DNA from: a virus
Reading direction: 5' to 3' (one strand)
DNA length: 40,576 nt
Virus record (IMG/VR): IMGVR_UViG_3300038545_000012
Of the stretch, positions 4,771-34,496 are shown in pieces. The notes beneath the pieces were generated by a model. That model did not search any database. It saw only the letters and a list, made by a program, of their open reading frames with translations, and had not been told where the DNA came from. A program made the translations under genes and the position numbers. Numbering within the stretch: position 1 is the stretch's first letter; each line of letters starts with the position of its first letter.

Positions 4771-4788
4771 AACAACTCTGACCAGTGA
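4771..4788 (+). repeat. Partial copy (a) of the conserved GACCAGT intergenic element
   Basis: AACAACTCTGACCAGTGA shares AACAACTCTGACCAGT with the reverse complement of 32623..32644. Confidence 0.5.
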
Positions 4789-4795
4789 GGTTACT

Positions 4796-5041
4796 ATGAG
4801 TGCAATTCTATATAAGCGCATTGACGGTGAAGTCAAAGAATTTCGAGTAGACGCAGTGCGCGTCAATGCGTTACTTCAGGACGGTTACTTTTCAAGCCCC
4901 GACTTAGCCGATGCAGACGCTAACGAGAGTGGCAAGTTAAGCAATGAAGAAGTGCGAGAAGCGGCTAAAGATGCTGGTATCTCAAACTGGAAAACCGCCA
5001 AGATTGACACGTTAAAGAAGAAACTCAATGAGCAAGACTAA
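4796..5041 (+). CDS. Small head-module protein (81 aa) with a HeH/SAP-like C-terminal motif
   Basis: ORF in the track. LSNEEVREAAKDAGISNWKTAKIDTLKKKL resembles Rho-N/HeH motifs. Confidence 0.5.
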   Translation: MSAILYKRIDGEVKEFRVDAVRVNALLQDGYFSSPDLADADANESGKLSNEEVREAAKDAGISNWKTAKIDTLKKKLNEQD

Positions 5042-5744
5042 AGGCGAGTTAGTCGCCGCAGCCTTTCGCAAAGCGCAAATCTCAGGCATTACCACGCAGC
5101 CGACAGGTGATGAGCTTGCAGGTGCAGTGGAAACGCTTGAAGATATGATGCGCGAACTGCAAAGCAAAAACGCTTGCATCAATTACGAATATGAAGATGA
5201 GCCATGTCTTAGCACTGATAGCAAGATAGACCCTATGTGGTATCACGCTGTACAGTCGCGGCTAGGTTTACTGCTTTGCTCTGATTACGGCATTGAGCCA
5301 AGCGCAACACTGCAACGTCAAGCAGCACAGGCTTGGTCTAGTATGATAGGTAAGAAGACACTGCCACGCCAGAACGTACAACCACGTACAATGCCGCGAG
5401 GAAGCGGAAACACAAACCGTCTTGGTGTCTGGTCGCGTTACTATGGCGGCGACAACAGAGCGCCCATTGATTGCGATACCGTGCAGATTGATGTGGGTGA
5501 GACTTACCCGTTAACGGTTGATTTCAGCATATTTCTAACTGCCGGTGAAACAATATCATCGTTTGAAATACAAGATATCAGCGGCGGCATTGCACAAACT
5601 AGCCAGTTAACCGAAGACTTGAACGGCGTTGAGTTAGTGGTGACAGGTGTTAGCGCTGGCACGAATTCGCTAATAGTTAAAATTACAACCACACTTGGCA
5701 GGGTTAACCTTGAAAAGGTGTGGATAACAGTGAGGGCTGTGTAA
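5028..5744 (+). CDS. Head-to-tail adaptor, P22 gp4-like, with an extra C-terminal Ig-like domain
   Basis: KTKGELVAAAFRKAQIS and PRTMPRGSGNT match recalled P22 gp4 (KTKGDLVRAALRKLGV, PSRMPTGSGNS). It is 238 aa against about 166 aa in P22. The tail VTGVSAGTNSLIVKITT looks BIG2-like. Confidence 0.75.
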   Translation: MSKTKGELVAAAFRKAQISGITTQPTGDELAGAVETLEDMMRELQSKNACINYEYEDEPCLSTDSKIDPMWYHAVQSRLGLLLCSDYGIEPSATLQRQAAQAWSSMIGKKTLPRQNVQPRTMPRGSGNTNRLGVWSRYYGGDNRAPIDCDTVQIDVGETYPLTVDFSIFLTAGETISSFEIQDISGGIAQTSQLTEDLNGVELVVTGVSAGTNSLIVKITTTLGRVNLEKVWITVRAV

Positions 5745-6535
5745 TGGCTAATCTTAATTTGCCGTGGTCTATAAGTTCAGATATAGGTATAGGTGTAGCA
5801 ATAGCGGAGGGCGACTTCGATGGAGTGTCAGACATATACCTGTTTGGAACGCGTCAAATGCCGCTGGCTGATACTGAATACTGTGTTGCGCCAATTGGAC
5901 CGAATGATGGTGATATTCAATTTCCCACCACGCCGCAAGAAATGTTTATTGTTTCAACTGACGCATCAGACACGGCAAATATCGTGCTGAGAACGTTTGA
6001 TGAAAATGTGAATGAGGTGACGGCAGTTTACCAACTTAACGGCACAACGCCAGTAAGCATAGGCACGTGGCTTGGCGTACAGCCCGTTGGATTTCCCGTA
6101 GAGGAATCTGGCGTACTTGGTGAGGTGTATGTTTCAACGTCAAACCTAGCAACGCCGCCAGCTGGTACAGTAATGGCTAAGATGCTTCCTGAGGACCAGC
6201 AATTCTCAGGCTGTTATTACACCATCCCTCGCGGATTTGTTGCCTACTTCTTTCAAGCCACGCCAACAGACTCGCGTGATGCAGGGGGCGCTAATAGCCA
6301 ATTTGGAACGCTGCACCTTTACACAAGAGATAGAGGTCTTGAGTCCGGTAGAAATGCTGGCCCTTGGCGAAGAAGAGGCACGTTAACGGTGGGTACTAAC
6401 AGCTCATCAACTCAACTAAACTTTATGCCACCTATCCAATTTGACCAAGGCACAGATATTTTGCTGAAGGCAGAGGGTAACAATATAAACCATAGAATTT
6501 CGGCTTATTTTGGACTGGTGTTTAGACGAAAATGA
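5744..6535 (+). CDS. Hypothetical beta-rich virion protein (263 aa) between the gp4-like and gp10-like genes
   Basis: ATG 5744 overlaps the upstream stop (TAATG). I recognised no family. Confidence 0.6.
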   Translation: MANLNLPWSISSDIGIGVAIAEGDFDGVSDIYLFGTRQMPLADTEYCVAPIGPNDGDIQFPTTPQEMFIVSTDASDTANIVLRTFDENVNEVTAVYQLNGTTPVSIGTWLGVQPVGFPVEESGVLGEVYVSTSNLATPPAGTVMAKMLPEDQQFSGCYYTIPRGFVAYFFQATPTDSRDAGGANSQFGTLHLYTRDRGLESGRNAGPWRRRGTLTVGTNSSSTQLNFMPPIQFDQGTDILLKAEGNNINHRISAYFGLVFRRK

Positions 6536-7923
6536 TTCCACTAATCAAAGGGCAGCGCAAAAGCAAGTACGACTATCGCGACAATCTACCTGTGAACATG
6601 ACAGCAGTTGCGTCACAGGTTGAGGGTGATACGGGATATCTACTAGCGCATGATGGCTTGACCGAGTTTGCGCAGACTAGCGGCACGGCTAGAGGCGGTT
6701 ACTTTAACGAGCGCCTTAATAGGCATTTTCGCGTGTCTGGAAATAACCTGGAGAGCGTTGCGACTGATGGCGTTATTGAGAATATTGGCGCTATCGCAGG
6801 TCAAGGTACAGTATCATTTGCTGAGTCATTCAACAGTCTTGCTATTGTGGCTGGCGGTAGATTTTACCTATATGACGAAGCAGGGCTGCAAGAGGTTGTT
6901 AGTGATAATCTAGGTGTCCCGATAGACATAACATGGTTCAGTGGTATTTATGTGATGACTGACGGAGAGTTTATATACAACACCTCGCTCTCTGATGAAA
7001 CCGAAATCCGCGTTTTAGATTACGTGTCAAGCGAGTTTGCATCTGACCCAATAAAGGGGTTGTTGCGCACTGACAGCAATCAAATTGTAGCGTTTAACCG
7101 CTACTCCACAGAATACTTTTATTTTAACGCTAACAGCGATGTTAATGCTTCCCCACTTCAAGTTATATCTGGCAAATCTAATCGTATTGGCATCATCGGT
7201 ACGCACTGCAAATGCTTTCTTGATGGTGCTATATTCATTCTAGGTGGCAGAAAAGATGAAAGCCCGTCTATTCATATTTTGAATGGCGCGAATGAAGCGA
7301 CAATTGCGACGCGTGAAATTGATAAAATTCTAGGCGAGTATACAGAAAGCGAATTGTCGGGTGCGGTGCTGGAAGATAGGACAGTTGACCGCGACAAGTT
7401 CTTGATTGTTCACTTACCAAGGCACACCCTGTTATATAACCACACGGTAGGTCAGCAACAAGGTATAGCAGCAGCGTGGACGTTTTTAAAGACCGGCGAC
7501 AATGACACATGGCGAGGCATCTACGGCGTATTTGACCCTCGTATAAGCAAGTGGGTGTACGGTGACAGGTTAGAAAATAAGCTTGGCTATCTTGACCAGC
7601 AAAGCTTTGCGCAGTATGACGAGGCGCAAGAGGCGCTAATTTATACACCTATCATTCCCGCTAAACGTGTGAGCATCAACCAAGTCGAGTTAGACACTAT
7701 TGCAGGCTATTCGAATCAATCTGTCAGTGTTGCTATGTCATTATCCTACGACGCAGTAGCATGGGGTGAGGAGCATTGGTCGGTGGTGAGCAAGCCAGAC
7801 AACTACAACACGAATTACATCGTAAGGCGCTTAGGTTATGTGGCACAGTCCTTTAGTCTGCGATTTAGATTTATCAGTAAAGATAAAATGGCGTTTTCTG
7901 GGTTAATGATTAATGATAGATAA
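6532..7923 (+). CDS. Tail hub protein, P22 gp10-like
   Basis: DNLPVNMTAV and LIVHLPRHTLLYN match recalled P22 gp10 (DYLPVNMLA, LIIHLPRHVLVYD). The lengths are similar (463 vs 472 aa). Confidence 0.8.
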   Translation: MIPLIKGQRKSKYDYRDNLPVNMTAVASQVEGDTGYLLAHDGLTEFAQTSGTARGGYFNERLNRHFRVSGNNLESVATDGVIENIGAIAGQGTVSFAESFNSLAIVAGGRFYLYDEAGLQEVVSDNLGVPIDITWFSGIYVMTDGEFIYNTSLSDETEIRVLDYVSSEFASDPIKGLLRTDSNQIVAFNRYSTEYFYFNANSDVNASPLQVISGKSNRIGIIGTHCKCFLDGAIFILGGRKDESPSIHILNGANEATIATREIDKILGEYTESELSGAVLEDRTVDRDKFLIVHLPRHTLLYNHTVGQQQGIAAAWTFLKTGDNDTWRGIYGVFDPRISKWVYGDRLENKLGYLDQQSFAQYDEAQEALIYTPIIPAKRVSINQVELDTIAGYSNQSVSVAMSLSYDAVAWGEEHWSVVSKPDNYNTNYIVRRLGYVAQSFSLRFRFISKDKMAFSGLMINDR

Positions 7924-8215
7924 AATCCCATCAACACTACAAAAACTTATTACGCTTAGTGATATTGCAAGCGCTCAGAAGCCCGTTAAGGATGAAGATT
8001 ACTTCCAACTTAAGCGAGACTATCAGAATCTAGTTAACGCGGTCACAGCACTTCTCGTTGCGGTTAATGGTGGAGAGTTTAGCCCTTTATCCGGCAGTGG
8101 AGACCCTAACGGCGTAACGAGCGCTAACTACTCGCTACTGTATATCGATACTGATATTAACCAACTGTACTATAACCCTGCCTACGGAGAAAACACCGGA
8201 TGGATTGCGTTATAA
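7913..8215 (+). CDS. Small fibre-like/needle-candidate protein (100 aa)
   Basis: Helical N-terminus. The C-terminus LLYIDTDINQLYYNPAYGENTGWIAL is typical of fibre tips. It sits after the hub gene. Confidence 0.35.
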   Translation: MIDKIPSTLQKLITLSDIASAQKPVKDEDYFQLKRDYQNLVNAVTALLVAVNGGEFSPLSGSGDPNGVTSANYSLLYIDTDINQLYYNPAYGENTGWIAL

Positions 8216-8553
8216 TTGATAAGAGCCAATTTGTAGAAGTATTTGGTCGTGAAACTGAGAAACATGCTAGTTATTACAGCTTTGGTGGCGTCGTGTTTTC
8301 TGCCGTTAAGCGTGGCGGTGCTGTTATTACGCACGTAGGTTGTAAAAAAGAAAACATGAAAAATCTAAGAGAGGCATGTAAGCGATACTGTTATTACATG
8401 CTTAACACCTTTGAATGGTGTAAGATGGTCATAGCAACGGTTGACGTTAAGCGTCAATCAGTGATTAACCTTTGCCGCAAGCTTGGCTTTACCGATACAG
8501 GTAACTTTGAGTTTGAGCACGGCACAGCTAAAGTAATGGTGAAAACAAAATGA
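8200..8553 (+). CDS. Hypothetical protein (117 aa), possible GNAT-like remnant
   Basis: ORF in the track. The tail VINLCRKLGFTDTGNFEFEHG resembles the C-terminal part of GNAT folds. This call is weak. Confidence 0.4.
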   Translation: MDCVIIDKSQFVEVFGRETEKHASYYSFGGVVFSAVKRGGAVITHVGCKKENMKNLREACKRYCYYMLNTFEWCKMVIATVDVKRQSVINLCRKLGFTDTGNFEFEHGTAKVMVKTK

Positions 8554-9296
8554 GTTTCATGGGTAAAATTTTTGATGGCATAACGGGTAAGACCGCAGCC
8601 AATGCAAGCAGAGAGGCCGCAGATACAAGCGTAGCTTTTCAGCGTGAAGCGTTAGACTACCTTAAACAAAGCCAAGAGCCATTACTACAGGCGCAGCAAT
8701 TCGGCTTAACCGGGTTAATGGATTTCTATGGCGGCAATCAGCAAGGGTTGATTGACCAAGTGCAGGCTAACCCATTCTATCAATCAATGGTGAGCCAAGG
8801 CGAAGAAGCGGTATTGCGCAATGCGGCGGCTACTGGCGGTTTGCGTGGCGGTAATGTGCAGCAGGCTTTAGCGCAGAATAGCCAAAACGTATTACAGGGC
8901 TTAACCAATCAGTATCTAGGCGGATTCGGTCAGCTAGCAGGTTATCAACCAAACACAGCGGGCGTAGCGCAAGCCACAAGCAACATTGGTAACACAATGG
9001 CGCAAGGTATTACGGGCGCGGCGCAGGCAGAGCAGCAAGGTATAGGTAACTTGGTTAATATCGGCACTAGTTTGGCTGGTTTGTTCTCTGACGAGAGACT
9101 TAAAGATAATGTTAAGTTTATAGGTAAGATAAACGGCCATAAACTTTATTCTTGGACGTGGAACAAGCTTGCTGAAAAGTTAGGGTTAAAAGGCGAGTCA
9201 CAAGGCGTCATTGCGCAAGAGGTTGAACAGTACGCCCCGCATTTGGTTGGTGAGCGTGACGGATATAAAACAGTTAACTATGCAGGGGTTTGGTAA
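8550..9296 (+). CDS. Gln/Gly/Ala-rich virion protein with a C-terminal intramolecular chaperone (peptidase S74-type) domain
   Basis: SDERLKDNVKFIGKINGHKLYSWTWNK...GVIAQEVEQYAPHLV...KTVNYAGV is the hallmark of the endosialidase/tail-fibre auto-cleaving chaperone domain. Confidence 0.8.
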   Translation: MSFMGKIFDGITGKTAANASREAADTSVAFQREALDYLKQSQEPLLQAQQFGLTGLMDFYGGNQQGLIDQVQANPFYQSMVSQGEEAVLRNAAATGGLRGGNVQQALAQNSQNVLQGLTNQYLGGFGQLAGYQPNTAGVAQATSNIGNTMAQGITGAAQAEQQGIGNLVNIGTSLAGLFSDERLKDNVKFIGKINGHKLYSWTWNKLAEKLGLKGESQGVIAQEVEQYAPHLVGERDGYKTVNYAGVW

Positions 9297-22010: not shown

Positions 22011-22184
22011 TTAGATTATGCTACCGTCCAAAACGTCGGCTGCGAACTTTTCAATCAACTCCACGGATACAATTTCACCTGCTGGAAGTTGATGAGTTTG
22101 AAAGCTATTGCGAAGGTACGAAACCATCTCGCGAATAACTTCCGCTTTCTTTTCTTTATCTTCTGAAAATCTATACTGGCTCAT
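22011..22184 (-). CDS. Hypothetical protein (57 aa)
   Basis: ATG 22184 overlaps the stop of the upstream gene (ATGA). The track ORF extends to 22196. Confidence 0.5.
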   Translation of the reverse strand: MSQYRFSEDKEKKAEVIREMVSYLRNSFQTHQLPAGEIVSVELIEKFAADVLDGSII

Positions 22185-22429
22185 TCTAAACCCCATTTAT
22201 TATCAAAATCCACAAGCGCCACTTTAGACTTTCCATGCTCGCACTTAATCACCCCAAGATACTGCATTACGGCAAGCGTCTCGCGCATGGTTGTTCTGTG
22301 AAAGCCAACCTCCAAGACCATGTGGCGCTCAGAGATTAGCTTTTGCCCCTTATCAACCCTGCCGCCGTGTGCCTGTGCAATCCAGCGTATACGCTCATCT
22401 ATGCGCTGCTTGTAGGTTTGGCGGTTCAT
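22181..22429 (-). CDS. Stand-alone GntR-type winged-helix DNA-binding protein (82 aa)
   Basis: LISERHMVLEVGFHRTTMRETLAVMQYLGVIKCEHGKSKV follows the GntR HTH pattern (SER..L.....SR.TVREAL..L...G.I....G.G). There is no effector domain. Confidence 0.6.
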   Translation of the reverse strand: MNRQTYKQRIDERIRWIAQAHGGRVDKGQKLISERHMVLEVGFHRTTMRETLAVMQYLGVIKCEHGKSKVALVDFDNKWGLE

Positions 22430-22597: not shown

Positions 22598-22626
22598 CAC
22601 CCACACAATAACACTAAATGTGGGTG
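22598..22626 (-). other. 8-bp-stem hairpin (CACCCACA / TGTGGGTG, 13-nt loop) adjacent to element copy b
   Basis: Read directly. On the transcribed minus strand it lies between the element and the RBS. Confidence 0.6.
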
Positions 22627-22647
22627 CAACAGATTAGACCAGTTAGA
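22626..22647 (+). repeat. Copy (b) of the conserved intergenic element (..AACAGATTAGACCAGTTAGA)
   Basis: 22628..22647 is the exact reverse complement of 31465..31484 (20 nt). Confidence 0.8.
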
Positions 22648-22840
22648 GTTTTTCACGCAAGAATAAATGCGCATTCATGCAAAGCCAAATAAACAGCATA
22701 AATGGAATCGTCACAGGCCAAAGAATGCAGCATATCCATTGCACGACAATTTCAAAGCCATCGTTTGTATTTTGCGTTTTGTAAACGGCAATTAAGCAGG
22801 CCGCAAATATAATTATGTATGTTGCCATTATTAAAATCAC
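22643..22840 (-). CDS. Small two-TM membrane protein (61-65 aa)
   Basis: ORF in the track. Likely ATG at 22828, or GTG at 22840. Confidence 0.5.
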   Translation of the reverse strand: MILIMATYIIIFAACLIAVYKTQNTNDGFEIVVQWICCILWPVTIPFMLFIWLCMNAHLFLREKL

Positions 22841-23893: not shown

Positions 23894-24538
23894 TTATACG
23901 TAGCATTTAAAAGTCCATCCCTTGTGTGTCTTTTGCCTGCCAGCCACAAGGTCGTTTAGACAGGTTCTATTTAACCCATTTTCTTCCGCAAATAGCTTTC
24001 TATTTCTTACTATCACCTCTTCACCATCGGGAGATATAAAAATGTGCGGCCTCATATTTTTTCTTTCCCTGTTATTCTCTTTCCTAGTAACAAGCGAGCA
24101 AGTGTCTGGAGAGTAAAGCCTACAGCCCTTAACCTTTATATCCTTATCGAGATGAAGGTCATCCCTACCTCTAGATTCTTTAACGTACCAATCAAGGAAA
24201 TTTTTAAAGTTATGCCATTCGCTAGACACTTCGCAATCTGAATAACCTTCATAGCTGGGATTCGATTGACTAAGGCATCTAGATAGCATCTGCCTCCATA
24301 TATAATAAATCCTTCTTTCTCTATCATTCATTTTGCCTTTATAGCCTTTGAATCCAACGCCAAAAACTTGAGGTTTTAGATAGTCCCTTATAGACCCATT
24401 CTTTACATTTGAAATGCTAGACTTAAACTCAAAGCCAGTATCAATAAATCTGAACTTTGATTTGTCATAACATATGTACTCGACCAGTAAAACTTCGCCA
24501 TTTGGTGTTTTTATAATATCGCCGGACTTCATATCCAT
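23894..24538 (-). CDS. Free-standing homing-endonuclease-like protein (HNH/NUMOD-type architecture)
   Basis: IYYIWRQMLSRC..YEGY..CEVSSEWHNFKNFLDWY and LHLDKD...YSPDTCSLVTRKENNRE follow the common phage HNH-associated pattern. The C-terminal FISPDGEE..FAEENGLNRTCLNDLVAG..KTHKGWTF is NUMOD1-like. The gene is visibly AT-rich. Confidence 0.5.
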   Translation of the reverse strand: MDMKSGDIIKTPNGEVLLVEYICYDKSKFRFIDTGFEFKSSISNVKNGSIRDYLKPQVFGVGFKGYKGKMNDRERRIYYIWRQMLSRCLSQSNPSYEGYSDCEVSSEWHNFKNFLDWYVKESRGRDDLHLDKDIKVKGCRLYSPDTCSLVTRKENNRERKNMRPHIFISPDGEEVIVRNRKLFAEENGLNRTCLNDLVAGRQKTHKGWTFKCYV

Positions 24539-24548
24539 CTCCAGTTAA

Positions 24549-25846: not shown

Positions 25847-25896
25847 CTTTCAATCTCCTCTAATCGGTACGCAAAAGATACGTGATTTTTTATCGC

Positions 25897-25918
25897 TTAA
25901 CAACTCCGACCACTTAAC
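25897..25918 (+). repeat. Copy (c) of the conserved element (TTAACAACTCCGACCACTTAAC) in the divergent control region
   Basis: Read directly. It differs from copy d at 3 of the 21 aligned positions (TTAAC[A/T]ACTCCGACCA[C/G]TTAA[C/T]). Confidence 0.7.
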
Positions 25919-25920
25919 CA

Positions 25921-25970: not shown

Positions 25971-25989
25971 ACTTAAATGGTAAACAAGT

Positions 25990-26181: not shown

Positions 26182-26660
26182 TGAAGCTAACCCACATACT
26201 GCCAAAAGATAAACCAGGTGACTGGAAGTTAATTGTATCTCACCACCTGCAAACAGCGTTTAAGTGGGATAAAGATTTACAACTAACTATCGAGCCTGTT
26301 AAGCAATCTGGTAATTGGTCAATGTCAAAGCTTTGGCGTAGCTGGATGAATTCAACAGCTGAGTTTATGGCAAACAATGGCGTCACTATGCCTCTAATGA
26401 TTAAGCCTAGTGGCGAACACTACGGAAAGCGTCCGTTTAACGCTGATGATGCGCACGAGCTATTCACCGCGCAATGGCTAGGCTGTGACGCGCAGGGCAA
26501 CAGGCTTTCATGGGCTAAGTCAGGCGAAAACATAGCCGACAAAGGCCAACGGTTTAACGCTATGCAAAAACATGAGCAGTACATGATAGAGCGCGGAATT
26601 AAACACATGATGCCGCGAGAGAGTGAATATTTTATAGAGAGGGAGAAAGCTAGTGATTAA
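26181..26660 (+). CDS. NinB/Orf-like recombination mediator
   Basis: LTIEPVKQSGNWSMSKLWRSWMNSTAEFM parallels lambda NinB VTIQERNRSLDQNRKLWACLGDVSRQV as I recall it. Confidence 0.5.
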   Translation: MKLTHILPKDKPGDWKLIVSHHLQTAFKWDKDLQLTIEPVKQSGNWSMSKLWRSWMNSTAEFMANNGVTMPLMIKPSGEHYGKRPFNADDAHELFTAQWLGCDAQGNRLSWAKSGENIADKGQRFNAMQKHEQYMIERGIKHMMPRESEYFIEREKASD

Positions 26661-26931
26661 ATCAAAGAAAATACGTGATAGCGCTAGAAACGAATCATGC
26701 AGCCTGCGCGTACACCCTCAATGCCAAGACGGTGAAACGGTTGTATTTTGCCACCTGCAAAGCAACTATCGCGGCATGGGGTTTAAATCTCCAGACCTAT
26801 TCGGCGTGTATGGCTGCGCTTGGTGTCACTCATGGCTAGACAGTGGCAAGGTTGATATGCATGACCAGATGCGAGCGCTACAAGAAACGCAAATGAAGCT
26901 TTACGAAAAAGAACTTATACAGGTGAAATGA
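26653..26931 (+). CDS. YbcO-like (DUF1364) protein
   Basis: ARNESCSLRVHPQC..ETVVFCHL...KSPDLFGVYGCAWCHSWLD parallels the YbcO Cys pattern. Confidence 0.65.
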   Translation: MIKSKKIRDSARNESCSLRVHPQCQDGETVVFCHLQSNYRGMGFKSPDLFGVYGCAWCHSWLDSGKVDMHDQMRALQETQMKLYEKELIQVK

Positions 26932-27799: not shown

Positions 27800-27800
27800 T

Positions 27801-28466
27801 ATGCGCTGGCTAAAACATGACACGGATGCAAACCAAGACGCAAAACTCCAAAACGTTTTACTTGATTATGGGCTTGAGGGATACGGCCTTTACTGGTACT
27901 GCCTAGAGTTGATAGCTGGAAAGGTCGATAAGGATAATATTACCTTCGAGCTTGAGCATGATGCCAGAATTATAGCAAGAAACACAGGCTGCACACCTCA
28001 GAAGGTTGAAGAAATGATGAGGTATTTTGTTGAGCTTGGTTTGTTTGAAAGTAGCGAGGGAGTTATCACATGCCTAAAGCTTGCTCGTAGGCTTGATAGC
28101 TCTATGACAAGCAATACGGACATGAGAAACATCATACAAAAGCTAAAAAATCCTGATGGAGTCATGACTAAATCAGATAAAGTCATGCAAGATAAGAAGA
28201 GAATAGAAGAGAAGAGAATAGATAAAAAGACTAGTCGTTTCACTCCTCCAAGTTTTAAAGAAGTCTCTGATTATTGCATAGAGCGCAATAACAGGGTTAA
28301 TCCTCAAGCGTTTTTAGACCACTACGAGTCAAACGGGTGGATGCGCGGCAAAACAAAGATTAAAGACTGGAAAGCCTGCGTAAGAACATGGGAGCAAAAC
28401 AACAAAGATAGGCAACCAAGCGCAGCGCCAAAACAAAACGGATTTGATACGGGATTTGAACAATGA
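27801..28466 (+). CDS. Replication initiation/replisome-organiser protein (DUF4373-like N-terminus, DnaD-like phage C-terminal motif)
   Basis: MRWLKHDTDANQDAKLQ..GLEGYGLYWYCLELIA at the N-terminus and FLDHYESNGWMRGKTKIKDWKACVRTWEQ at the C-terminus. It lies directly upstream of DnaB. Confidence 0.6.
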   Translation: MRWLKHDTDANQDAKLQNVLLDYGLEGYGLYWYCLELIAGKVDKDNITFELEHDARIIARNTGCTPQKVEEMMRYFVELGLFESSEGVITCLKLARRLDSSMTSNTDMRNIIQKLKNPDGVMTKSDKVMQDKKRIEEKRIDKKTSRFTPPSFKEVSDYCIERNNRVNPQAFLDHYESNGWMRGKTKIKDWKACVRTWEQNNKDRQPSAAPKQNGFDTGFEQ

Positions 28467-29761
28467 ATAAAAGTGATATTGAAAGAATACAGCGTAACAC
28501 GGTAAACGCTGAGCAAAGTCTTATAGGTTCGGTATTGGTCGATAACGGGCTAATGAATGAAATCAAGGTAACGTCTGATAATTTCTTTCTGTCTGAGTGC
28601 GCCATGATATTTCAAGCAATGGAAGCGCTACACGCTGAAAGAAAGCCTTTTGACTTGGTAACGCTATCGGACTGGTTATCGGCTAAGCGAGGCGTTGATT
28701 ACTTCACGCAATTAGCCGAATACGCACATGCGACACCTAGTGCGGCAAACGGCAAAACATACGCTGAGAAAGTAAAAGAGTATTGGCGTTCACGAGAGGC
28801 TTGCAGAATAGCTGCGGAATTGTCAGAGATTAGGAAATCAAATGACCAAGATATGATTGATAAAGCCATTAGTCAGCTAATGAGCCTTAACGTATCTACC
28901 AAAAACTACAATCATTCAGCAGCTGAGGTTATCGATTCAGCGTTAGCGAAAGTGCAAGAGGCGTGTATGTCTGAAACGGGGTGTACTGGTTTAAGAACGG
29001 GCATCAATGAATTTGACGAGGTGACGGGGGGCTTAAACCGCACTGATTTAATTATCGTTGGTGCACGTCCGGCTATGGGTAAAACCGCTTTCATGCTTAA
29101 CATTGCCACAAGGCATCCCGATATCCGTGCAGGGATATGTTCCGGTGAGCAGGGCCATGAGCAAATGGGTATGCGCATGCTGTCAATTCACGGCTCAATT
29201 AACGGCGCTAGAATGCGTAACGGCGAATTGGGTGATGAGGAATTGACAAAGCTAACAGGCGCAAGCGCTAAGTTATATCACGGTGATTTTTGGGTGGATG
29301 ATACGCCTAACATGTGTATTACGGATATAGAGCGCAGAGCAAGGCAATGGGTTCACGAGAATGGCGTTAATGCGATATTTGTTGATTACTTGCAAAAGAT
29401 TAAGCATCCCGAAAAGAATCTGAATAAGATAGACCAGATAGCTGACATTGCTATTAGGCTTAAATCATTAGGCAAGGAGTTAAACATTCCAGTTGTGGCA
29501 TTAGCTCAAGTCAACAGGGCGGTTGAGTCACGACCAGATAAGCGACCATCAGCGGCAGATATAAAAGATTGTGGCGTGATAGAGCAAGAGGCTGATTCAA
29601 TAATCACGCTTTACAGGGATGAGGTTTACAACGAGGGTACACCAGACCACGGTATTGCTGAGTTGATATTCTGCAAGAACAGGCATGGGCCAACAGGAAC
29701 TAAGCGCGTTAATTGGATTGGTAAGTATATGCAGTTCAATGACTTTAAATATGGTAAATAA
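28463..29761 (+). CDS. dnaB: Replicative DNA helicase DnaB
   Basis: Walker A GARPAMGKT, VDYLQKI and ALAQVNRAVESRPDKRPSAADIKDCGVIEQEADSIITLYRDEVYN. Confidence 0.9.
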   Translation: MNKSDIERIQRNTVNAEQSLIGSVLVDNGLMNEIKVTSDNFFLSECAMIFQAMEALHAERKPFDLVTLSDWLSAKRGVDYFTQLAEYAHATPSAANGKTYAEKVKEYWRSREACRIAAELSEIRKSNDQDMIDKAISQLMSLNVSTKNYNHSAAEVIDSALAKVQEACMSETGCTGLRTGINEFDEVTGGLNRTDLIIVGARPAMGKTAFMLNIATRHPDIRAGICSGEQGHEQMGMRMLSIHGSINGARMRNGELGDEELTKLTGASAKLYHGDFWVDDTPNMCITDIERRARQWVHENGVNAIFVDYLQKIKHPEKNLNKIDQIADIAIRLKSLGKELNIPVVALAQVNRAVESRPDKRPSAADIKDCGVIEQEADSIITLYRDEVYNEGTPDHGIAELIFCKNRHGPTGTKRVNWIGKYMQFNDFKYGK

Positions 29762-29839
29762 ATCAAATAGTTGCTTTACTTTGTATGCAAAATATGCTTA
29801 CCCATTAAAGAAATTTATGGTTACGATAAGAAATTTTGA

Positions 29840-29860
29840 TTAACTACTCCGACCAGTTAA
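29840..29860 (+). repeat. Copy (d) of the conserved element (TTAACTACTCCGACCAGTTAA)
   Basis: Read directly. Its ends are a perfect TTAAC...GTTAA inverted pair. It lies 17 nt upstream of a TTGACA hexamer. Confidence 0.75.
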
Positions 29861-29877
29861 TAAAACACATAAAAGTG

Positions 29878-29906
29878 TTGACAACAAAGCGTGAAGTGCT
29901 ATTCTA
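29878..29906 (+). promoter_or_regulatory. Candidate promoter TTGACA-N16/17-TATTCT/ATTCTA
   Basis: A perfect -35 with a moderate -10, about 50 nt upstream of the 29953 ORF. Confidence 0.5.
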
Positions 29907-29952
29907 TACACATACCAACGAGGCAACGAACAAAAACACCGGAGATTGAGAA

Positions 29953-30093
29953 ATGAACATGGATACACTAGCTAAGCAGTCACTTGAATCGGCAATGAAA
30001 ATTACTGGCACTGATGGTAAAGACGCGCATACGCAAGAAATTGCTTTTAAGCTTGCATGTGCAGCAATGGCGCAGGAGGTAGCGAGCCGCTAA
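29953..30093 (+). CDS. Hypothetical 46-aa protein (hand-translated)
   Basis: Preceded by GGAGATTGAGAA. Confidence 0.5.
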   Translation: MNMDTLAKQSLESAMKITGTDGKDAHTQEIAFKLACAAMAQEVASR

Positions 30094-30109
30094 GGTTCGC
30101 TTTTGTCTT

Positions 30110-30391
30110 ATGGAAGATTACAAACAAGCAGCGCTAAGCCTATTCCCGAATAAATGGGTTGAGGTTAGCGATGATTTCAAAATCGACAACAATGCAGGCA
30201 AAAAGGAGGTAGCTGAGGAAGTGTTCAAAGCTGTTTTCGATAAACTAAAAACTGAGCATGTAGCCGATTCTGTGGCTAAAGCTTTTCTTCGTAGAGCCTC
30301 TAAATGGGGCACTGATAACAACGGTATTAACGCGGCTAATATGTCAACTGCGTTGATGGCTGCAATCATAGCGATAGGGGATGACGAATAA
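30110..30391 (+). CDS. Hypothetical protein (93 aa)
   Basis: ORF in the track. No clear RBS. Confidence 0.45.
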   Translation: MEDYKQAALSLFPNKWVEVSDDFKIDNNAGKKEVAEEVFKAVFDKLKTEHVADSVAKAFLRRASKWGTDNNGINAANMSTALMAAIIAIGDDE

Positions 30392-30561
30392 TGACCCCCC
30401 TAAAAACCCTGCTAACCGAATACCCTAGCCAACTATCATTCGCCAGGGCTTACGATATTCACCCGTACCAGCTTAGACGGTGGCTAGATAACGACGCGCA
30501 TGTGGATGGTGAGGGCAATGTCTACATACGAACTAAGGGCAAGCTGGTTAAGTCTGATTAA
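30391..30561 (+). CDS. 56-aa putative HTH protein (hand-translated)
   Basis: SQLSFARAYDIHPYQLRRWL is HTH-like. TAATG overlap with the upstream gene. Confidence 0.4.
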   Translation: MTPLKTLLTEYPSQLSFARAYDIHPYQLRRWLDNDAHVDGEGNVYIRTKGKLVKSD

Positions 30562-30584
30562 CCAACAAACAAGAGGAGATTGAG

Positions 30585-30749
30585 ATGTTTAAGACCCACT
30601 GCAAGCATGGTTTTCATTTTTCGATAATGTGCTTTGAATGCGAGAAATCGCTAAAAATGCGCCCTATTAAAAAGCAAGCCAGCGAAAACGAAAAGCTAGA
30701 AGCTGCGAAAAGAAGAATTTATGAAGCCGCTAAGAGGTTGGACTGGTAA
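30585..30749 (+). CDS. 54-aa Cys/His-containing protein (hand-translated)
   Basis: HCKHGFHFSIMCFEC. Preceded by GAGGAGATTGAG. TAATG overlap downstream. Confidence 0.5.
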   Translation: MFKTHCKHGFHFSIMCFECEKSLKMRPIKKQASENEKLEAAKRRIYEAAKRLDW

Positions 30750-30934
30750 TGGCTGAAGAAATCAAAGCAACAGCCGCAACATGGGAAGACATTAAGCGGT
30801 TGAGTGAGGAGAATGAGAGGTTGAAATCTGAAATTGCCATCGCAAAGTGCTTACTGTCCAATGAGTGGCCTGCGCATTATAGAGATATGAATTTAGTGAT
30901 TAGTGAATTACTGGAGAGCAAAACAAATGATTGA
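30749..30934 (+). CDS. Hypothetical protein (61 aa)
   Basis: ORF in the track. Confidence 0.5.
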   Translation: MAEEIKATAATWEDIKRLSEENERLKSEIAIAKCLLSNEWPAHYRDMNLVISELLESKTND

Positions 30935-31469
30935 TTGGAATAGACACAAAAGTGCGGCTTATGCGGCTATCACATTTTTTGATGAGGCTGGTAAATCAGT
31001 TGGTTTTAAAAGACTTGACCGCCCAACACAACCAAAAACCGTTGCGGATGCGGTGGAGGCGTATCCTAACGGATGGCCTAAACACATGGATGATGAACTA
31101 TGGTTTAGCGAGACTGAAAACAGTTACATGAGAAGAATAGAGGTTCTTCCTAAACATAAAGCGTATTTCGTTTGTGATTATTTGCAATTCGAAGCTTATG
31201 TGAAAGAGCAAGAGGGCGAGAAGTGGACGCATGTTTATAACGAGCACGAAGTTTGCAGAGTTCTAACAGAAGACCCTGACAGATTCGGAATTATTGTTAT
31301 AGATACCGCCAGCAACGGATACATAGTTTGTGAGCCTAATGAGATAAAACCCATCAAGCCGACTCTGACAAAAGCACAGGCGTGGGATATGCTCAAGCAA
31401 ACACCTGATAATATAAGAAGCCTAGATGATGCACTTATCGAAATAACAGATAAATACGACATAATCTAA
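30927..31469 (+). CDS. Hypothetical protein (about 180 aa)
   Basis: ORF in the track (open from 30903). ATG 30927 minimises the overlap. Confidence 0.55.
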   Translation: MIDWNRHKSAAYAAITFFDEAGKSVGFKRLDRPTQPKTVADAVEAYPNGWPKHMDDELWFSETENSYMRRIEVLPKHKAYFVCDYLQFEAYVKEQEGEKWTHVYNEHEVCRVLTEDPDRFGIIVIDTASNGYIVCEPNEIKPIKPTLTKAQAWDMLKQTPDNIRSLDDALIEITDKYDII

Positions 31470-31487
31470 CTGGTCTAATCTGTTAAG
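31465..31487 (-). repeat. Copy (e) of the conserved element (reverse orientation)
   Basis: TCTAACTGGTCTAATCTGTTAAG. 31465..31484 is the exact reverse complement of 22628..22647. Confidence 0.8.
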
Positions 31488-31520
31488 CGCATCATCGGTG
31501 TTAAGGTGCGCTTAGTTTTT
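31485..31520 (+). terminator. Hairpin AAGCGCA-15 nt-TGCGCTT followed by AGTTTTT
   Basis: Read directly. The next RBS follows immediately. Confidence 0.55.
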
Positions 31521-31533
31521 AAGGAGATTGAAA

Positions 31534-31836
31534 GTGGGAAATGTAACAGAAAGTATATACAGCGGCGAATATGTAATAATACCAATGCGTGAAGTTTGCT
31601 TTATACAAAGGGAGGCTAACGGAGCGGTCACAGTGGTTATGTCCGGCTCGACTTGGAATAGCGAGATAGATGCCTACAACAATGCCGCATATCTTCACGC
31701 AACAGAGGCTGAGTCGTTTAAAAAGTGTTGGTGTAGGTATCGCCATGAGTTAGAGTTAGACGACTTAAAGGAGATTGAAAGTGAAAGCAACAATACTAGT
31801 ACGAGATTTGGTAAAGCTTATCGCCAAGCATGGTGA
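31534..31836 (+). CDS. Hypothetical protein (about 100 aa, GTG start)
   Basis: AAGGAGATTGAAAGTG start context. The track ORF begins at TTG 31528. Confidence 0.5.
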   Translation: MGNVTESIYSGEYVIIPMREVCFIQREANGAVTVVMSGSTWNSEIDAYNNAAYLHATEAESFKKCWCRYRHELELDDLKEIESESNNTSTRFGKAYRQAW

Positions 31837-31966
31837 TTTGGATGTGAAAATGTGTGTCGCAACTGATAATCATGGCGAGCATGAGGCGAATTCTTTCAGT
31901 GTCGATGAGCTTAGAGGCGCGACAAAGAAAGTAACAGCATTCGAAATCTACGGAGAAGAACAATGA
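31781..31966 (+). CDS. Hypothetical protein (about 61 aa, GTG start)
   Basis: It has the identical AAGGAGATTGAAAGTG start context and overlaps the previous ORF by 56 nt. Confidence 0.45.
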   Translation: MKATILVRDLVKLIAKHGDLDVKMCVATDNHGEHEANSFSVDELRGATKKVTAFEIYGEEQ

Positions 31967-32214
31967 TAAACGAACAAGAATTAGCTGAGGCAATAGAAAC
32001 TATCTCAGAAGGTGGTCAGGCGCTAGGGGTTAGCTGCGAGGATGTTTATCGCCGGATGATGCGCAATGAAAAATTAATGTTTGCTGTGATGCAAGACATT
32101 CTTAGTGAAGATGACCTCGTTTTTCATGACTTCTTTTCTGCGTTCACCACTTACGCAGAATCAATGCTCAAAGAAGCCCTACGCGCAAAGCAGGAGGTGA
32201 GTGCAGGATGCTAA
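31963..32214 (+). CDS. Hypothetical protein (83 aa)
   Basis: ORF in the track. ATGA overlap. Confidence 0.5.
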   Translation: MINEQELAEAIETISEGGQALGVSCEDVYRRMMRNEKLMFAVMQDILSEDDLVFHDFFSAFTTYAESMLKEALRAKQEVSAGC

Positions 32215-32399
32215 CAATCTCAGACTTACTAGTAATGACACGCGGCAATCAATCAAAAGTTGCCCGTATGTTACGCATTCAGCGCGGCACGCTATCGAAT
32301 TACCTGAAGCTAAAGAAAGAGCACATGGTTATCGAGCGTGACGGAGAGTATCACTTATTCGCAAATATCAGCGAGCAGTACGGCAATGAGCACAATTAG
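32208..32399 (+). CDS. Fis/NtrC-type HTH protein (63 aa)
   Basis: GNQSKVARMLRIQRGTLSNYLK closely follows the Fis-type HTH pattern GN.S.AAR.LGI.R.TL.RKLK. Confidence 0.5.
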   Translation: MLTISDLLVMTRGNQSKVARMLRIQRGTLSNYLKLKKEHMVIERDGEYHLFANISEQYGNEHN

Positions 32400-32643
32400 A
32401 CGCACACCTAAGCCAGCATACGAGATACGCAAAGGGGTTTCTCTGCCGCAGCCATTAGATGAGCTTTATAAGGCTATTTACGAATCACGCATACCATTCG
32501 ATGAGCTATCAGAGAAGAGCGGCATACACACGGAGACAATGCGTAAATGGTTTAGCCTTGGCAATATGCCGACACTGTTTAGTTATATGGCAGTGGCTAA
32601 CGCTTTAGGCATGGAAGTGAAACTAACTGGTCAGAGTTGTTAA
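32386..32643 (+). CDS. XRE-type HTH protein (85 aa)
   Basis: LSEKSGIHTETMRKWFSLGNMPTLFSYMAVANALGMEV. I chose the internal ATG 32386. Confidence 0.5.
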   Translation: MSTIRRTPKPAYEIRKGVSLPQPLDELYKAIYESRIPFDELSEKSGIHTETMRKWFSLGNMPTLFSYMAVANALGMEVKLTGQSC

Positions 32644-32644
32644 C
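32623..32644 (-). repeat. Copy (f) of the conserved element (reverse orientation), followed by a partial second TAACTGG unit at 32641..32651
   Basis: CTAACTGGTCAGAGTTGTTAAC read directly. It overlaps the 3' end of the 32386..32643 gene. Confidence 0.75.
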
Positions 32645-32667
32645 TGGCTGGTTAGGATGTAAGGTTT

Positions 32668-32693
32668 AAGCGTCCCTAGCAATAGGGCGTTTT
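32668..32693 (+). terminator. Bulged hairpin AAGCG(T)CCCTA-GCAA-TAGGGCGTT with a T-run
   Basis: Read directly. One bulged T and a short U-tract. Confidence 0.45.
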
Positions 32694-32816
32694 GGGAATG
32701 GTTGGCACGGTGTGGCTGAGAGAGTGAGCACAAACCGTAAGTAAACCGAAGTTGGAAATCCATGCAATTTAAGGTAAGTCCAGCCATTTACCAAAGCGAA
32801 CAAAGGAGATTAAAAA

Positions 32817-33233
32817 GTGGAAATGTTATTAGTTGAGAAGTATAGAAAAGAAGCTGAAGCCCTTCGCACACAACTAGCAAAGGCTAATGAAAAGATAGAG
32901 AATCTTAATTTAGCGTTTATTGAAAGAAAGGCTTTATGCCGACAGGCTTTCGACGCAAACGAAAAGCTATCGAAGGAGCTAGCAAAGGCTAATGAGCGTG
33001 TTGATGGCCTTGAAAAGGCACTGGCAAATTGCGCAGATGCTTTGTACGAAAGCGACATAAATCACAAAAAAGCTATTAATAAGATACAAGCAGAATGCAT
33101 TGATGTCTTATTTGATTTTGCTGCAAAGAGGGATGATTCAGGATTTGCTATAGCTCTGTATGAGCAGCCATATGAAATTCAGGATGCCATAAGGACATTC
33201 AAGCAACTAAGCAAGGATCAATCAAATGGGTAA
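32817..33233 (+). CDS. Coiled-coil protein (138 aa), possibly Ead/Ea22-like, with two LAKANE motifs
   Basis: ORF in the track. GGAGATTAAAAAGTG start context. Heptad-like sequence. Confidence 0.5.
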   Translation: MEMLLVEKYRKEAEALRTQLAKANEKIENLNLAFIERKALCRQAFDANEKLSKELAKANERVDGLEKALANCADALYESDINHKKAINKIQAECIDVLFDFAAKRDDSGFAIALYEQPYEIQDAIRTFKQLSKDQSNG

Positions 33234-33561
33234 CGGTGTAACAGCAAGCAATACGGCATCAGTGAGCCAGCAACAAATTATCGACTCGCTAACGGCTAAA
33301 CTAGCAAAGGCTAATGAGCGCGCAGATGAGTTACTAGCAAGAGTTGGTGAGGCAGAAGCTAGACTAGCATCAGCAGCTATAACGGGTAGTAGCGCATACC
33401 CAAGTGATGCACTAAACAAATTCGCCATAGAGAAGAAGATTGAGGCGCTAGATTGCTGCATTAAGCGAAACGCGCTACTTACTCACGACTTTGATGAAAA
33501 GGTTATTTATGTTAGTGATATTCAGATTGATATAGAACAACTACGCAAGGAGCAAGAGTGA
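33226..33561 (+). CDS. Coiled-coil protein (111 aa), paralogue of the preceding gene
   Basis: It shares a LAKANER motif and an A[IL]NK[IF]..E.I[DE] segment with 32817..33233. Confidence 0.5.
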   Translation: MGNGVTASNTASVSQQQIIDSLTAKLAKANERADELLARVGEAEARLASAAITGSSAYPSDALNKFAIEKKIEALDCCIKRNALLTHDFDEKVIYVSDIQIDIEQLRKEQE

Positions 33562-33785
33562 TGATGCATCTAATCGGTAGTGATTGGTATTATAAAGCAG
33601 TAAAGATTTTAAAATCGCTAGAGGTCGCGAGAACAGCTCAAGTGGCAATACTTTTAAGAATAAAGACGCCTCAAGCGCTAAGGCTACTTAAGCAGATGGA
33701 GGTGGCTGGAGTGGTTGAAAAAGACAAGTCTAGTTGCTCAAACTGTTTCTCATGGAAATTAACAAAGGAGAAATCCCAATGCTAG
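33558..33785 (+). CDS. Winged-helix (MarR-like) DNA-binding protein (75 aa)
   Basis: ARTAQVAILLRIKTPQALRLLKQMEVAGVVEK. Confidence 0.4.
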   Translation: MMMHLIGSDWYYKAVKILKSLEVARTAQVAILLRIKTPQALRLLKQMEVAGVVEKDKSSCSNCFSWKLTKEKSQC

Positions 33786-33931
33786 CCTTCAAATATTCAG
33801 AATTCGCACACCTAATCCAAACAGAATTTTGGTATATGACAGCGAGTACAGGTGCAATAGCTGTTGTGTGCTGTGGTGTTACGATTGCTGTTGTTGAGCT
33901 GGTTAAGCCGCTGTTGAGGAGAGGGAAGTGA
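33779..33931 (+). CDS. Small membrane protein (50 aa)
   Basis: AAAGGAG lies 8 nt upstream of ATG 33779. There is one hydrophobic helix. Confidence 0.45.
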   Translation: MLAFKYSEFAHLIQTEFWYMTASTGAIAVVCCGVTIAVVELVKPLLRRGK

Positions 33932-34299
33932 GAGATATTAAGTTTAGGATGTTCAGTAAGGGAAGAAATAAAATTATTTCATGGGAAGAGTTGCAAAAAC
34001 TTCATGTGCATACGGTTTTTAGCATGATGACACCTGAATGCAGGTTGATGCAATACACCGGACTAAAAGACAAAAACGGCGTTGAGATTTATGAGGGTGA
34101 TATTGTTAAAGGTAAGTGTAGTTACGGGCATCCAATCAGTCTGAAAAGATTTATAGGTAAAGTTGAGTTTGGCTCAGGCTCTCTATCATTCATTGCGCAG
34201 GGTGTAAAGCAATACGAATGGAAGCAGTGCCACCTAGTAGAGTGTTCAAGGCTTGAAGTAATCGGCAACATCCATCAGAACCCTGAGCTACTATCATGA
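33928..34299 (+). CDS. YopX-family protein
   Basis: IKFRMF...MQYTGLKDKNGVEIYEGDIV...EVIGNIHQNPELL is the YopX signature. Confidence 0.8.
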   Translation: MRDIKFRMFSKGRNKIISWEELQKLHVHTVFSMMTPECRLMQYTGLKDKNGVEIYEGDIVKGKCSYGHPISLKRFIGKVEFGSGSLSFIAQGVKQYEWKQCHLVECSRLEVIGNIHQNPELLS

Positions 34300-34478
34300 A
34301 CCAATACACCTGCCATGCCGAGTTTAACACGCATCAGTATCCGTGGAGCGTAAAAGCGCAGAATCTAAGTCATGCTGAAAACGCCTACGAACAATGGCTA
34401 TGGATGGAGTATAACCTAACGAAAGACTGTGCAGATTACTGGCTTGTTGCAAAAGCTGAACACATGTGTAATGATTAA
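34296..34478 (+). CDS. Hypothetical protein (60 aa)
   Basis: ORF in the track. ATGA overlap. Confidence 0.5.
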   Translation: MNQYTCHAEFNTHQYPWSVKAQNLSHAENAYEQWLWMEYNLTKDCADYWLVAKAEHMCND

Positions 34479-34496
34479 CCCGTACCTGACCAGTAC
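34476..34496 (+). repeat. Degenerate copy (g) of the conserved element (TTAAC-N8-GACCAGTA)
   Basis: Read directly. The spacer is 8 nt rather than 6, and it lies 24 nt upstream of a terminator. Confidence 0.35.

Follow-up and report, generated by a model that had tools for sequence, protein, structure and literature searches.

Putative fabA-like promoters with FadR boxes over the -35 region in a P22-like phage genome

The IMG/VR virus record IMGVR_UViG_3300038545_000012 is a DNA stretch of 40,576 nucleotides, and this whole stretch is referred to here as the window. A 21-bp element recurs at six places in the window, named boxes a to f in the order of their positions, and is interpreted below as a putative binding site for the host lipid-metabolism regulator FadR that covers the -35 region of a phage promoter. 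The window has no close relative among deposited phages and shares only patches of about 90% identity with the Alteromonas phages XX1924 and PB15, and a search for related loci with DnaB returned only one 5-kb relative. The gene order is syntenic with that of Pseudoalteromonas virus H6/1. The window begins inside the portal gene (end regions 1-937 and 39337-40576), with 83..937 matching the C-terminal part of portal profiles, and so the window is a complete P22-like genome that is circularly permuted or was opened arbitrarily. Neither an integrase nor a CI-type repressor was found among the window proteins scanned.

A weight matrix (PWM) derived from 20 phage copies of the element, taken from three phages, detects exactly six sites in the window with scores of 26.5-33.6 bits each. 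Since the range from 10 to 26 bits is empty and shuffled sequence yields about 0.1 sites, the copies form one discrete class. The first-pass annotation of this DNA, which was made from the letters alone, had estimated that the 9-mer GACCAGTTA at the core of the element should occur about 0.3 times by chance, and this enrichment is borne out: with 0.28 expected, the 9-mer is present four times, and none of 100 shuffles had as many. Likewise, a 20-nt pattern allowing up to two mismatches has six matches against 0.33 expected. Although 95% of the genome is coding, all six sites lie outside gene interiors (P about 8e-6), in agreement with the earlier placement of the copies between genes or at gene 3' ends, and a motif scan of the kind proposed there found no equally good match in gene interiors, nothing else exceeding 10 bits. 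Boxes b to f were correctly listed as strong copies, and box a, listed as a partial one, is a full-strength member with 26.8 bits. Two supposed degenerate copies, g (34476) and h (21597), fall below 10 bits and share only GACCAG or ACCAGT with the element; GACCAG by itself is found 22 times in the window.

On the strand opposite to that of the original reading, the invariant columns of the 20 phage copies are AACTGGTC-N-GA-NN-TGTT. At the N positions, copies from unrelated contexts differ freely. The two classes of a six-nucleotide spacer that had been distinguished earlier are merely some of the variants at these non-contact positions, to which relatives add TAT, CAT, TCC and GCA. Roughly every second copy shares exactly 4 nt with the end of an open reading frame (ORF), for which the TAA of the box is the stop codon.

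Alignment of 37 non-redundant boxes from many phages in the FadR orientation has shown that a TAnnnT hexamer starts 15-18 nt past the 21-mer in 30 of them, and that the TG of an extended -10 is present in 17 of those 30. The same hexamer is found in the opposite direction in only 3 of the 37 and at 6.7% of random positions. Beyond the -10, at a distance of 20-35 nt, come a Shine-Dalgarno sequence and a start codon. The box thereby comes to lie at about -47 to -31, and its 3' end, TTGTTA, resembles a weak -35. These observations make it very probable that the elements are sigma-70 promoters with the -35 inside the FadR box. The proposal that they are terminator-associated operators or antitermination sites thus gives way to promoters, with the box over the -35 and an extended -10 at 16-17 nt downstream. 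Because each promoter would drive the next gene and sit in the last codons of the preceding one in a genome that is 95% coding, the location of the boxes at gene ends is readily understood. The spacer and the -10 of promoters b and e, and of many copies in relatives, lie within an inverted repeat that runs into a stretch of T, and such repeats read as intrinsic terminators overlapping promoters. The hairpins reported earlier near the copies are real at a, b, e and f, whereas those at g and h do not belong to members of the class. A consensus promoter/terminator scan is uninformative for box promoters, which are non-consensus. In the relatives, an ortholog of promoter c is found in H6/1 at 26257, the position of box d is conserved in L121, L125, L155 and H6/1, and a 20-mer of box e is identical in seven related contigs.

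Box promoters are also found near tRNA genes of other phages. In contig L061 (91-215), a box promoter lies directly upstream of a phage tRNA-Ala gene, and the first base of the tRNA coincides with the predicted transcription start; therefore, this promoter class appears to drive tRNA genes as well in some phages. In contig L105, the nearest tRNA gene (Lys) is 258 nt downstream of a box.

Box c (25897..25917, minus strand; TTAAGTGGTCGGAGTTGTTAA; 29.1 bits) forms the -35 region of a putative leftward promoter of the early RecT operon. It had been assigned to a rightward promoter, whereas its own predicted -10, TATCTT (25880..25875, minus strand, offset 17), faces leftward, toward the RecT operon. 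The RecT gene, identified by a Pfam match, starts at ATG 25846 on the minus strand and is preceded by a GAGGAG Shine-Dalgarno sequence, and the operon comprises the RecT, HNH and pyrophosphatase genes. Two HNH endonuclease genes are present in early operons, at 23894-24538 on the minus strand and at 26653-26931 on the plus strand, one of them with an I-HmuI NUMOD-like C-terminus, and both are possible homing elements.

Promoters b and e are both overlapped by terminators. Box b (22626..22646, minus strand; CTAACTGGTCTAATCTGTTGC; 26.5 bits) provides with its TAA (22645..22643) the stop codon of the gene at 22643..22840. The inverted repeat ACCCACA...TGTGGGT (22598..22625, minus strand) encloses the spacer and the predicted -10 of promoter b, TATTGT (22610..22605, minus strand), and is read as a terminator overlapping the promoter. 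Promoter b would drive a mini-operon consisting of a small ORF followed by the gene at 22181..22429 on the minus strand, which encodes an 82-residue stand-alone FadR-like winged-helix protein. Box e (31466..31486, plus strand; CTAACTGGTCTAATCTGTTAA; 28.9 bits) likewise contributes the stop codon (TAA 31467-31469) of the gene at 30903..31469, whose homolog in H6/1 is annotated as a putative termination/antitermination protein. The inverted repeat GCGCATC...GGTGCGC (31487..31511, plus strand) encloses the predicted extended -10, TGtTAAGGT (hexamer 31502-31507), and is followed by a T-run, by AAGGAG and by the GTG start at 31534 of the gene to be driven.

Box f (32623..32643, plus strand; CTAACTGGTCAGAGTTGTTAA), the highest in score with 33.6 bits, is formed by the last 21 nt of the helix-turn-helix (HTH)-like gene 32338..32643, the terminal TAA being the stop codon. 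The predicted -10 of promoter f, TAAGGT (32660..32665, plus strand), is at offset 17, and a late/lysis-proximal block lies downstream. A conserved hairpin, CGTCCCTAGCAATAGGGCG followed by TTTT (32671..32693, plus strand), starts at the predicted transcription start of promoter f. It is invariant, loop included, in six otherwise divergent phages (the window, XX1924, PB15, L125, L123 and L085), the copies of L127 (XX1924) and L128 (PB15) being at about 21500 and about 16530. An Rfam search with the hairpin gave no match. Possible roles of the hairpin are those of a PR'/tR'-like early terminator that awaits antitermination, of a put-like RNA or of a 5' stabiliser. Farther to the right, after a strong terminator at 34518-34538, a 597-residue protein with SASA/sialate O-acetylesterase-type and Ig-like domains is encoded at 34590-36383 and is probably a receptor-modifying tail protein.

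Boxes a and d differ from the others in what lies downstream. Box a (4769..4789, minus strand; 26.8 bits) reads CTCACTGGTCAGAGTTGTTTG in the promoter direction, its FadR-type 17-mer spanning 4787..4771, and the predicted -10 of promoter a, TACATT (4747..4752, minus strand), is at offset 17. A bidirectional intrinsic terminator (4706..4735, hairpin z = -2.9) follows the major head (capsid) gene. Since promoter a fires leftward into this terminator, it is predicted to be an orphan here or the source of an RNA of at most about 40 nt. In PB15, where the driven gene is AP2/ERF-like, and in XX1924 and L135, a-type promoters with the same -10 region, TTAGTGTACTACAYT, drive genes, and the absence of a gene to drive in the window suggests that a moron has been lost. 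Box d (29840..29860, no strand assigned; TTAACTGGTCGGAGTAGTTAA; 30.1 bits) is more palindromic, with AGTT instead of TGTT, and no TAnnnT was found at the expected offset in its own direction. A near-consensus rightward sigma-70 promoter, TTGACA-N16-(TG)TATTCT (29878..29905, plus strand), follows 17 nt downstream of box d, which is centred at about -62 relative to this promoter and so looks like an operator.

The published consensus of the 17-bp FadR operator is aaCTGGTCnGACC(T/A)Gtt (PMC9329746), and the invariant columns of the 20 phage copies spell this consensus. The FadR sites AACTGATCGGACTTGTT of E. coli fabA and AGCTGATCGGAGTTGTTT of S. oneidensis fabA are bound in electrophoretic mobility shift assays (EMSA), and long-chain acyl-CoA frees them (PMC4537474). 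Between the class-1 phage element AACTGGTCGGAGTTGTTA and the Shewanella fabA site, 15 of 17 positions agree, and the right half of the phage element, TCGGAGTTGTT, is identical to that of the S. oneidensis fabA site. The 21-bp element thus reads as containing a FadR box. The ACCAG/CTGGT core had been recognised in the first-pass annotation as the kind of half-site used by GntR/FadR-type regulators, and this likeness extends to the whole element, which fits both the operator consensus and the EMSA-proven fabA sites.

A scan with TTAACANNTCNGACCAGTTA, made on one genome per bacterial species, has only 24 matches, of which about 14 are chromosomal and belong to Pseudoalteromonas, Alteromonas, Psychrosphaera, Planctobacterium, Colwellia and Vibrio. 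These chromosomal boxes lie just upstream of either the 2,4-dienoyl-CoA reductase gene (fadH) or a conserved gene of the DUF4442 hot-dog fold. fadH is a classical FadR target. The distribution of the fadH boxes fits the published contraction of the FadR regulon outside enterics. Reconstructions of FadR regulons exist for 9 of 9 "Other Alteromonadales", Alteromonas macleodii included (PMC5343134 supplement). Judging from this literature on Alteromonadales, and from the relatives of the phage, which point to Alteromonas or Pseudoalteromonas as the host genus, the host presumably encodes FadR.

In the host chromosomes L131, L133, L141-L144, L147 and L152, a near-perfect FadR box is conserved about 30 nt upstream of a stand-alone DUF4442 gene (in Pseudoalteromonas, Psychrosphaera and Planctobacterium) or, in the case of a Vibrio, beside a related gene. 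The DUF4442 gene is likely to be a member of the FadR regulon, and its product is perhaps a thioesterase analogous to fadM.

The phylogenetic footprinting of fadH was only partly positive, and this prompted a test of fabA. FadR binds the -40 region of fabA as an activator (PMC3462791). The -10 hexamers of the E. coli (TATCCT) and Shewanella (TAATCT) fabA promoters, as read from published probes, start at offset 17 on the same ruler as that used for the phage boxes. Further fabA and fabB promoters were retrieved from metagenomes by the conserved arrangement of a FadR box and a FabR palindrome; one metagenomic fabA was assigned to Alteromonas by its FabA protein, and the fabA genes of four named Alteromonas lineages were added. 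Five Alteromonas fabA promoters read ACTGTTCAGAGTTGTTT-N16-TAAATT (L286-L289, L255), and all Alteromonas fabA promoters show (A/G)ACTGTTCAGAGTTGT(T/A)T, followed by the FabR palindrome and then by TAAATT or TAGATT at offset 17, with the start codon about 55 nt past the box. Box f is the best match to the Alteromonas fabA box, phage promoter f reading ACTGGTCAGAGTTGTTA-N16-TAAGGT, also given as AACTGGTCAGAGTTGTTA-N16-TAAGGT.

The likeness between the phage promoters and the FadR-activated fabA/fabB promoters of E. coli, Shewanella, Vibrio and Alteromonas therefore comprises a 17-bp box at -47 to -31 over a weak TTGTT(N) -35 and a spacer of 16-17 nt to a TAnnnT -10, and the fabA boxes of Shewanella and Alteromonas additionally share the right half-site GAGTTGTT with the phage boxes. 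The differences are equally regular. In the conserved control region of Alteromonas fabA, the FadR box abuts the FabR palindrome AGCGTACAAGTGTTCGCT, which is present in all fabA and fabB promoters retrieved and fills the fabA spacer, whereas this palindrome is absent between box and -10 from all phage promoters aligned. The left half-site consensus is TGGTC in the phages and TGATC or TGTTC in fabA. In the phage promoters, the -10 is often extended by TG and the spacer often contains a terminator hairpin, and there are 4-9 such promoters per phage genome, driving phage genes. On the phage matrix, the phage boxes score 26-34 bits and the host fabA boxes 13-19 bits. The phage promoters thus appear to be like fabA promoters in function, and not to be copies of the complete fabA control region.

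Boxes occur in phages that are otherwise unrelated. Their number is 8-9 in Alteromonas phage XX1924 and 6 in PB15, and among the Pseudoalteromonas phages it is 6 in HS2 and at least 4 in H6/1; boxes recur in several IMG/VR contigs as well. Neither Alteromonas phage R22Y (68 kb) nor Vibrio phage MAG7 (49 kb) contains any, and a degenerate 14-base pattern gave mostly single chance matches in viral contigs. As the contact positions are invariant while the variable positions differ in non-homologous contexts, the boxes appear to be maintained by selection for binding rather than by common descent alone.

The protein that reads the box could in principle be encoded by the host or by the phage. The best PDB sequence matches of the 82-residue protein are FadR-type GntR regulators. 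It aligns in register with E. coli FadR, whose DNA-contact residues are R35, T44, R45, T46, T47, R49 and H65 (PMC4537474), and six of these seven are kept, T44 being replaced by H. A single-sequence AlphaFold model of the protein is poor, with a predicted local distance difference test score (pLDDT) of 67, and so the alignment-based AlphaFold 2 model was used, which has a pLDDT of 87 and shows three helices and a wing. In a Foldseek search with this model, the top matches are all GntR winged helix-turn-helix (wHTH) domains, and FadR structures give the lowest root-mean-square deviation (rmsd) and the highest identity, the E. coli and Vibrio proteins sharing the winged-helix fold with an rmsd of 2.5-2.9 Å and 25-32% identity. 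The protein was originally called a stand-alone GntR-type wHTH, and sequence, contact residues, model and fold search all sharpen this to FadR-like. Unlike full-length FadR, it ends at residue 82 and so lacks the C-terminal acyl-CoA-binding and dimerisation domain (FadR_C/FCD). Its Pfam GntR match is below the gathering threshold (17.2 against 27 bits), and the family formed by its relatives is rare and made up of stand-alone proteins 80-90 residues long. It is thus best regarded as a stand-alone DNA-binding domain and not as a FadR ortholog. PB15 (L128) carries an unannotated, frameshifted homolog of this wHTH at 28573-28799, whose frameshift could reflect either recent inactivation or faulty sequencing, and an intact 80-residue version (P0004) is encoded on the metagenomic contig L154 downstream of a dUTPase gene and a box.

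No homolog of the 82-residue protein was found in XX1924, HS2 or H6/1 by tblastn at E 1e-3, and at the same threshold none of the window proteins gave a homolog in every one of the four other carrier genomes. Because no phage protein is common to all carriers, host FadR is the most parsimonious binder and is probably the protein that reads the box. The first-pass annotation had named the phage GntR-like protein as the candidate regulator, and its role as the main binder becomes unlikely, since XX1924, HS2 and H6/1 possess 8-9, 6 and at least 4 boxes, respectively, without it. Being free of the ligand domain, the protein is probably a ligand-blind modulator or competitor.

These observations lead to the hypothesis that the element is the upstream half of a sigma-70 promoter modelled on the host fabA promoter, with the 17-bp operator AACTGGTC-N-GA-NN-TGTT at -47 to -31, TTGTTA as a weak -35 and TAnnnT after 16-17 nt. 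Host FadR, the acyl-CoA-responsive regulator of the GntR family, would bind the box and activate the promoters as it does at fabA, and when long-chain acyl-CoA is high, FadR would leave the DNA and the promoters would become weaker. At b, e and several copies of the relatives, transcription from upstream would end at the terminator and restart from the box promoter. Within this phage, the class would comprise promoter c for the early RecT operon, the internal promoters b and e, promoter f before the late/lysis-proximal block, the orphan a and the operator-like box d, and the 82-residue protein made from promoter b, which has no ligand domain, would probably bind the same boxes regardless of acyl-CoA and modulate them. 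The explanation as a whole, that is, fabA-like, FadR-activated phage promoters coupling expression to the host lipid-metabolism regulator, is considered moderately probable. That FadR activates these promoters rather than represses them is favoured slightly, by analogy with the fabA geometry.

Several points weigh against this explanation. The binding of FadR, the transcription start sites and the activation are all read from sequence, and the DNA specificity of Alteromonas FadR is likewise known indirectly. The host genus of this phage, Alteromonas or Pseudoalteromonas, is assigned only from its relatives. The right half-site deviates from the palindrome, being GAnnTGTT instead of GACCAGTT, as is also the case in fabA. 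The FadR box of fadH is patchy, since it occurs in two of five Alteromonadaceae genomes (present in L148 and L157, absent from L158-L160). Copy d and a few others lack a -10, and so not every box is a promoter. The perfect TGGTC left half of the phage boxes is not found in host fabA and could reflect tuning to another binder such as a monomeric phage wHTH. Finally, the search for a shared phage protein by tblastn at E 1e-3 would miss a very divergent common factor.

The last two points bear on an alternative in which the boxes are operators for a phage-encoded regulator, either the 82-residue wHTH or the 101-residue HTH product of 32338..32643, and host FadR is irrelevant or secondary. The retained residues R35, R45, T46, T47, R49 and H65 would allow the former to recognise the box, the perfect AACTGGTC half-site would suit a monomer, and in every carrier of its gene a box lies upstream of the mini-operon, which resembles autoregulation; the 101-residue HTH gene, which is common to the window and XX1924, ends in box f. 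This alternative is nevertheless unlikely, because phages with 4-9 boxes each (XX1924, HS2 and H6/1) have no homolog of the 82-residue protein, the PB15 copy is frameshifted, and no window protein is shared by all carriers. Furthermore, the same box stands outside prophages at the host fabA, fadH and DUF4442 genes, and the early promoter c cannot rely on a phage product that has not yet been made. If FadR or a FadR-like protein does occupy the boxes, it might instead act as a repressor or roadblock, like the stoperator system of mycobacteriophage L5, keeping transcription units silent or insulated until it is displaced or acyl-CoA levels go up. Such a role would fit the abundance of asymmetric sites in each genome, placed where genes meet and beside terminators, and also box d, which has no promoter of its own; a protein over the -35 can occlude RNA polymerase, and most of the FadR regulon is repressed (PMC9329746). 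However, the geometry of the box and the -10 is that of the FadR-activated fabA/fabB promoters (-47 to -31) and not that of the repressed fad promoters, in which the site covers the -10/+1 region, and a weak -35 (TTGTTA) with an extended -10 is typical of activator-dependent promoters. Since neither an integrase nor a CI-type repressor was found, there is also no obvious setting for prophage silencing, and repression is slightly less credible than a phage-encoded binder.

It is improbable that no transcription factor is involved and that the element is a conserved promoter module (an extended -35/upstream region) spread by recombination at mosaic junctions, with its FadR likeness derived from a captured fabA promoter. 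Some copies are clearly homologous, as the recurrence of the e-type 20-mer with its hairpin and the common a-type -10 region TTAGTGTACTACAYT indicate, and flanking genes differ on one side as at a mosaic boundary. On the other hand, the invariant positions are the FadR contact positions while the intervening ones vary freely in unrelated contexts, an A/T-rich UP element would not resemble the conserved, G+C-rich AACTGGTC found at -47 to -40, and the phage copies are nearer to the FadR consensus than fabA is, which argues for continued selection for binding and not for drift. Hardly probable at all is the proposal that the boxes serve mainly as decoys, by which replicating phage DNA titrates host FadR, de-represses beta-oxidation and lowers fabA expression. 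The 6-9 sites per genome are stronger than host fabA (PWM 26-34 against 13-19 bits), and a decoy role is compatible with every other observation, titration being a side effect of FadR-activated promoters anyway; but decoys explain neither the fixed orientation and spacing of the boxes relative to the -10 and the downstream genes nor why almost every box heads a transcription unit. None of these alternatives explains together the identity with a host operator, the fixed -10 spacing and the lack of a shared phage protein.

Other known elements were compared with the boxes and rejected. The GG/GC spacing is unfit for a sigma-54 promoter, and IHF and PsrA sites were discarded from the sequence. 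The RYYYAAC/GTTRRRY core of integron attC sites fits only some copies, and the element is far too short for such a site. Promoters of T7/T3-like single-subunit RNA polymerases were dismissed since no such polymerase gene is present and the sites have a sigma-70 -10. Lambda nut boxA/boxB, put-like or RNase-processing RNA elements were set aside because there are no Rfam matches and the hairpins enclose a -10, and L5-like stoperators because the carriers have no protein in common and no CI-type repressor or integrase was found in the window.

In mycobacteriophage L5 and other cluster A phages, the stoperators are bound by the immunity repressor of the phage itself, block elongation and are not promoters. 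They resemble the boxes in being many asymmetric sites of about 13-21 bp at gene boundaries with an orientation consistent with transcription; in contrast, the boxes carry their own -10, match the operator of a host regulator and occur in phages without a common repressor. A closer parallel is provided by marine T4-like cyanophages, which have 1-16 NtcA sites per genome with a mean of 8.9 (Sullivan et al. 2010, PMC3037559). Like the boxes, the cyanophage NtcA/Pho boxes occur several times per genome, serve a host regulator that senses a metabolite, are intergenic or at gene ends, and have been proposed to couple phage expression to the nutrient status of the host (PMC3037559). NtcA belongs to the CRP family, senses 2-oxoglutarate and acts in other hosts, whereas the regulator here would be FadR of the GntR family and the signal long-chain acyl-CoA. 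The cyanophage sites are short and degenerate (GTA-N8-TAC), whereas here a whole promoter would copy a specific host promoter, and some box phages, unlike the cyanophages, also encode a truncated copy of the regulator's DNA-binding domain. Neither FadR-dependent phage promoters nor this motif turned up in a literature search. Few cases are known in which phage promoters recruit a metabolite-sensing regulator of the host, the cyanophage NtcA and Pho boxes being examples, and FadR as the regulator, the copying of a whole host promoter and the truncated regulator copy in some phages are new here.

More tentatively, there is the possibility that the early, middle and late promoters of unrelated Alteromonas and Pseudoalteromonas phages have come to depend obligately on FadR, the phages having copied the fabA promoter without its FabR brake. 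The long-chain acyl-CoA pool of the host, as set by feeding on lipid-rich particles or algal exudates, would then gate productive infection, and the ligand-blind FadR domain of some phages might override or retune this dependence and could reprogram the fad/fab regulon of the host. At a practical level, the model box-N16-TGnTAnnnT, with which the promoters can be mapped, delineates the transcription units of Alteromonas and Pseudoalteromonas phage genomes that lack other annotation. A virus-encoded, effector-blind copy of the DNA-binding domain of a host regulator would have a natural example in the stand-alone FadR-like domain. If the FadR-activated promoters operate as proposed, the infection of abundant marine copiotrophs would respond to the fatty-acid status of the cell, providing a testable link from the availability of lipids on particles or in algal exudates to viral lysis.

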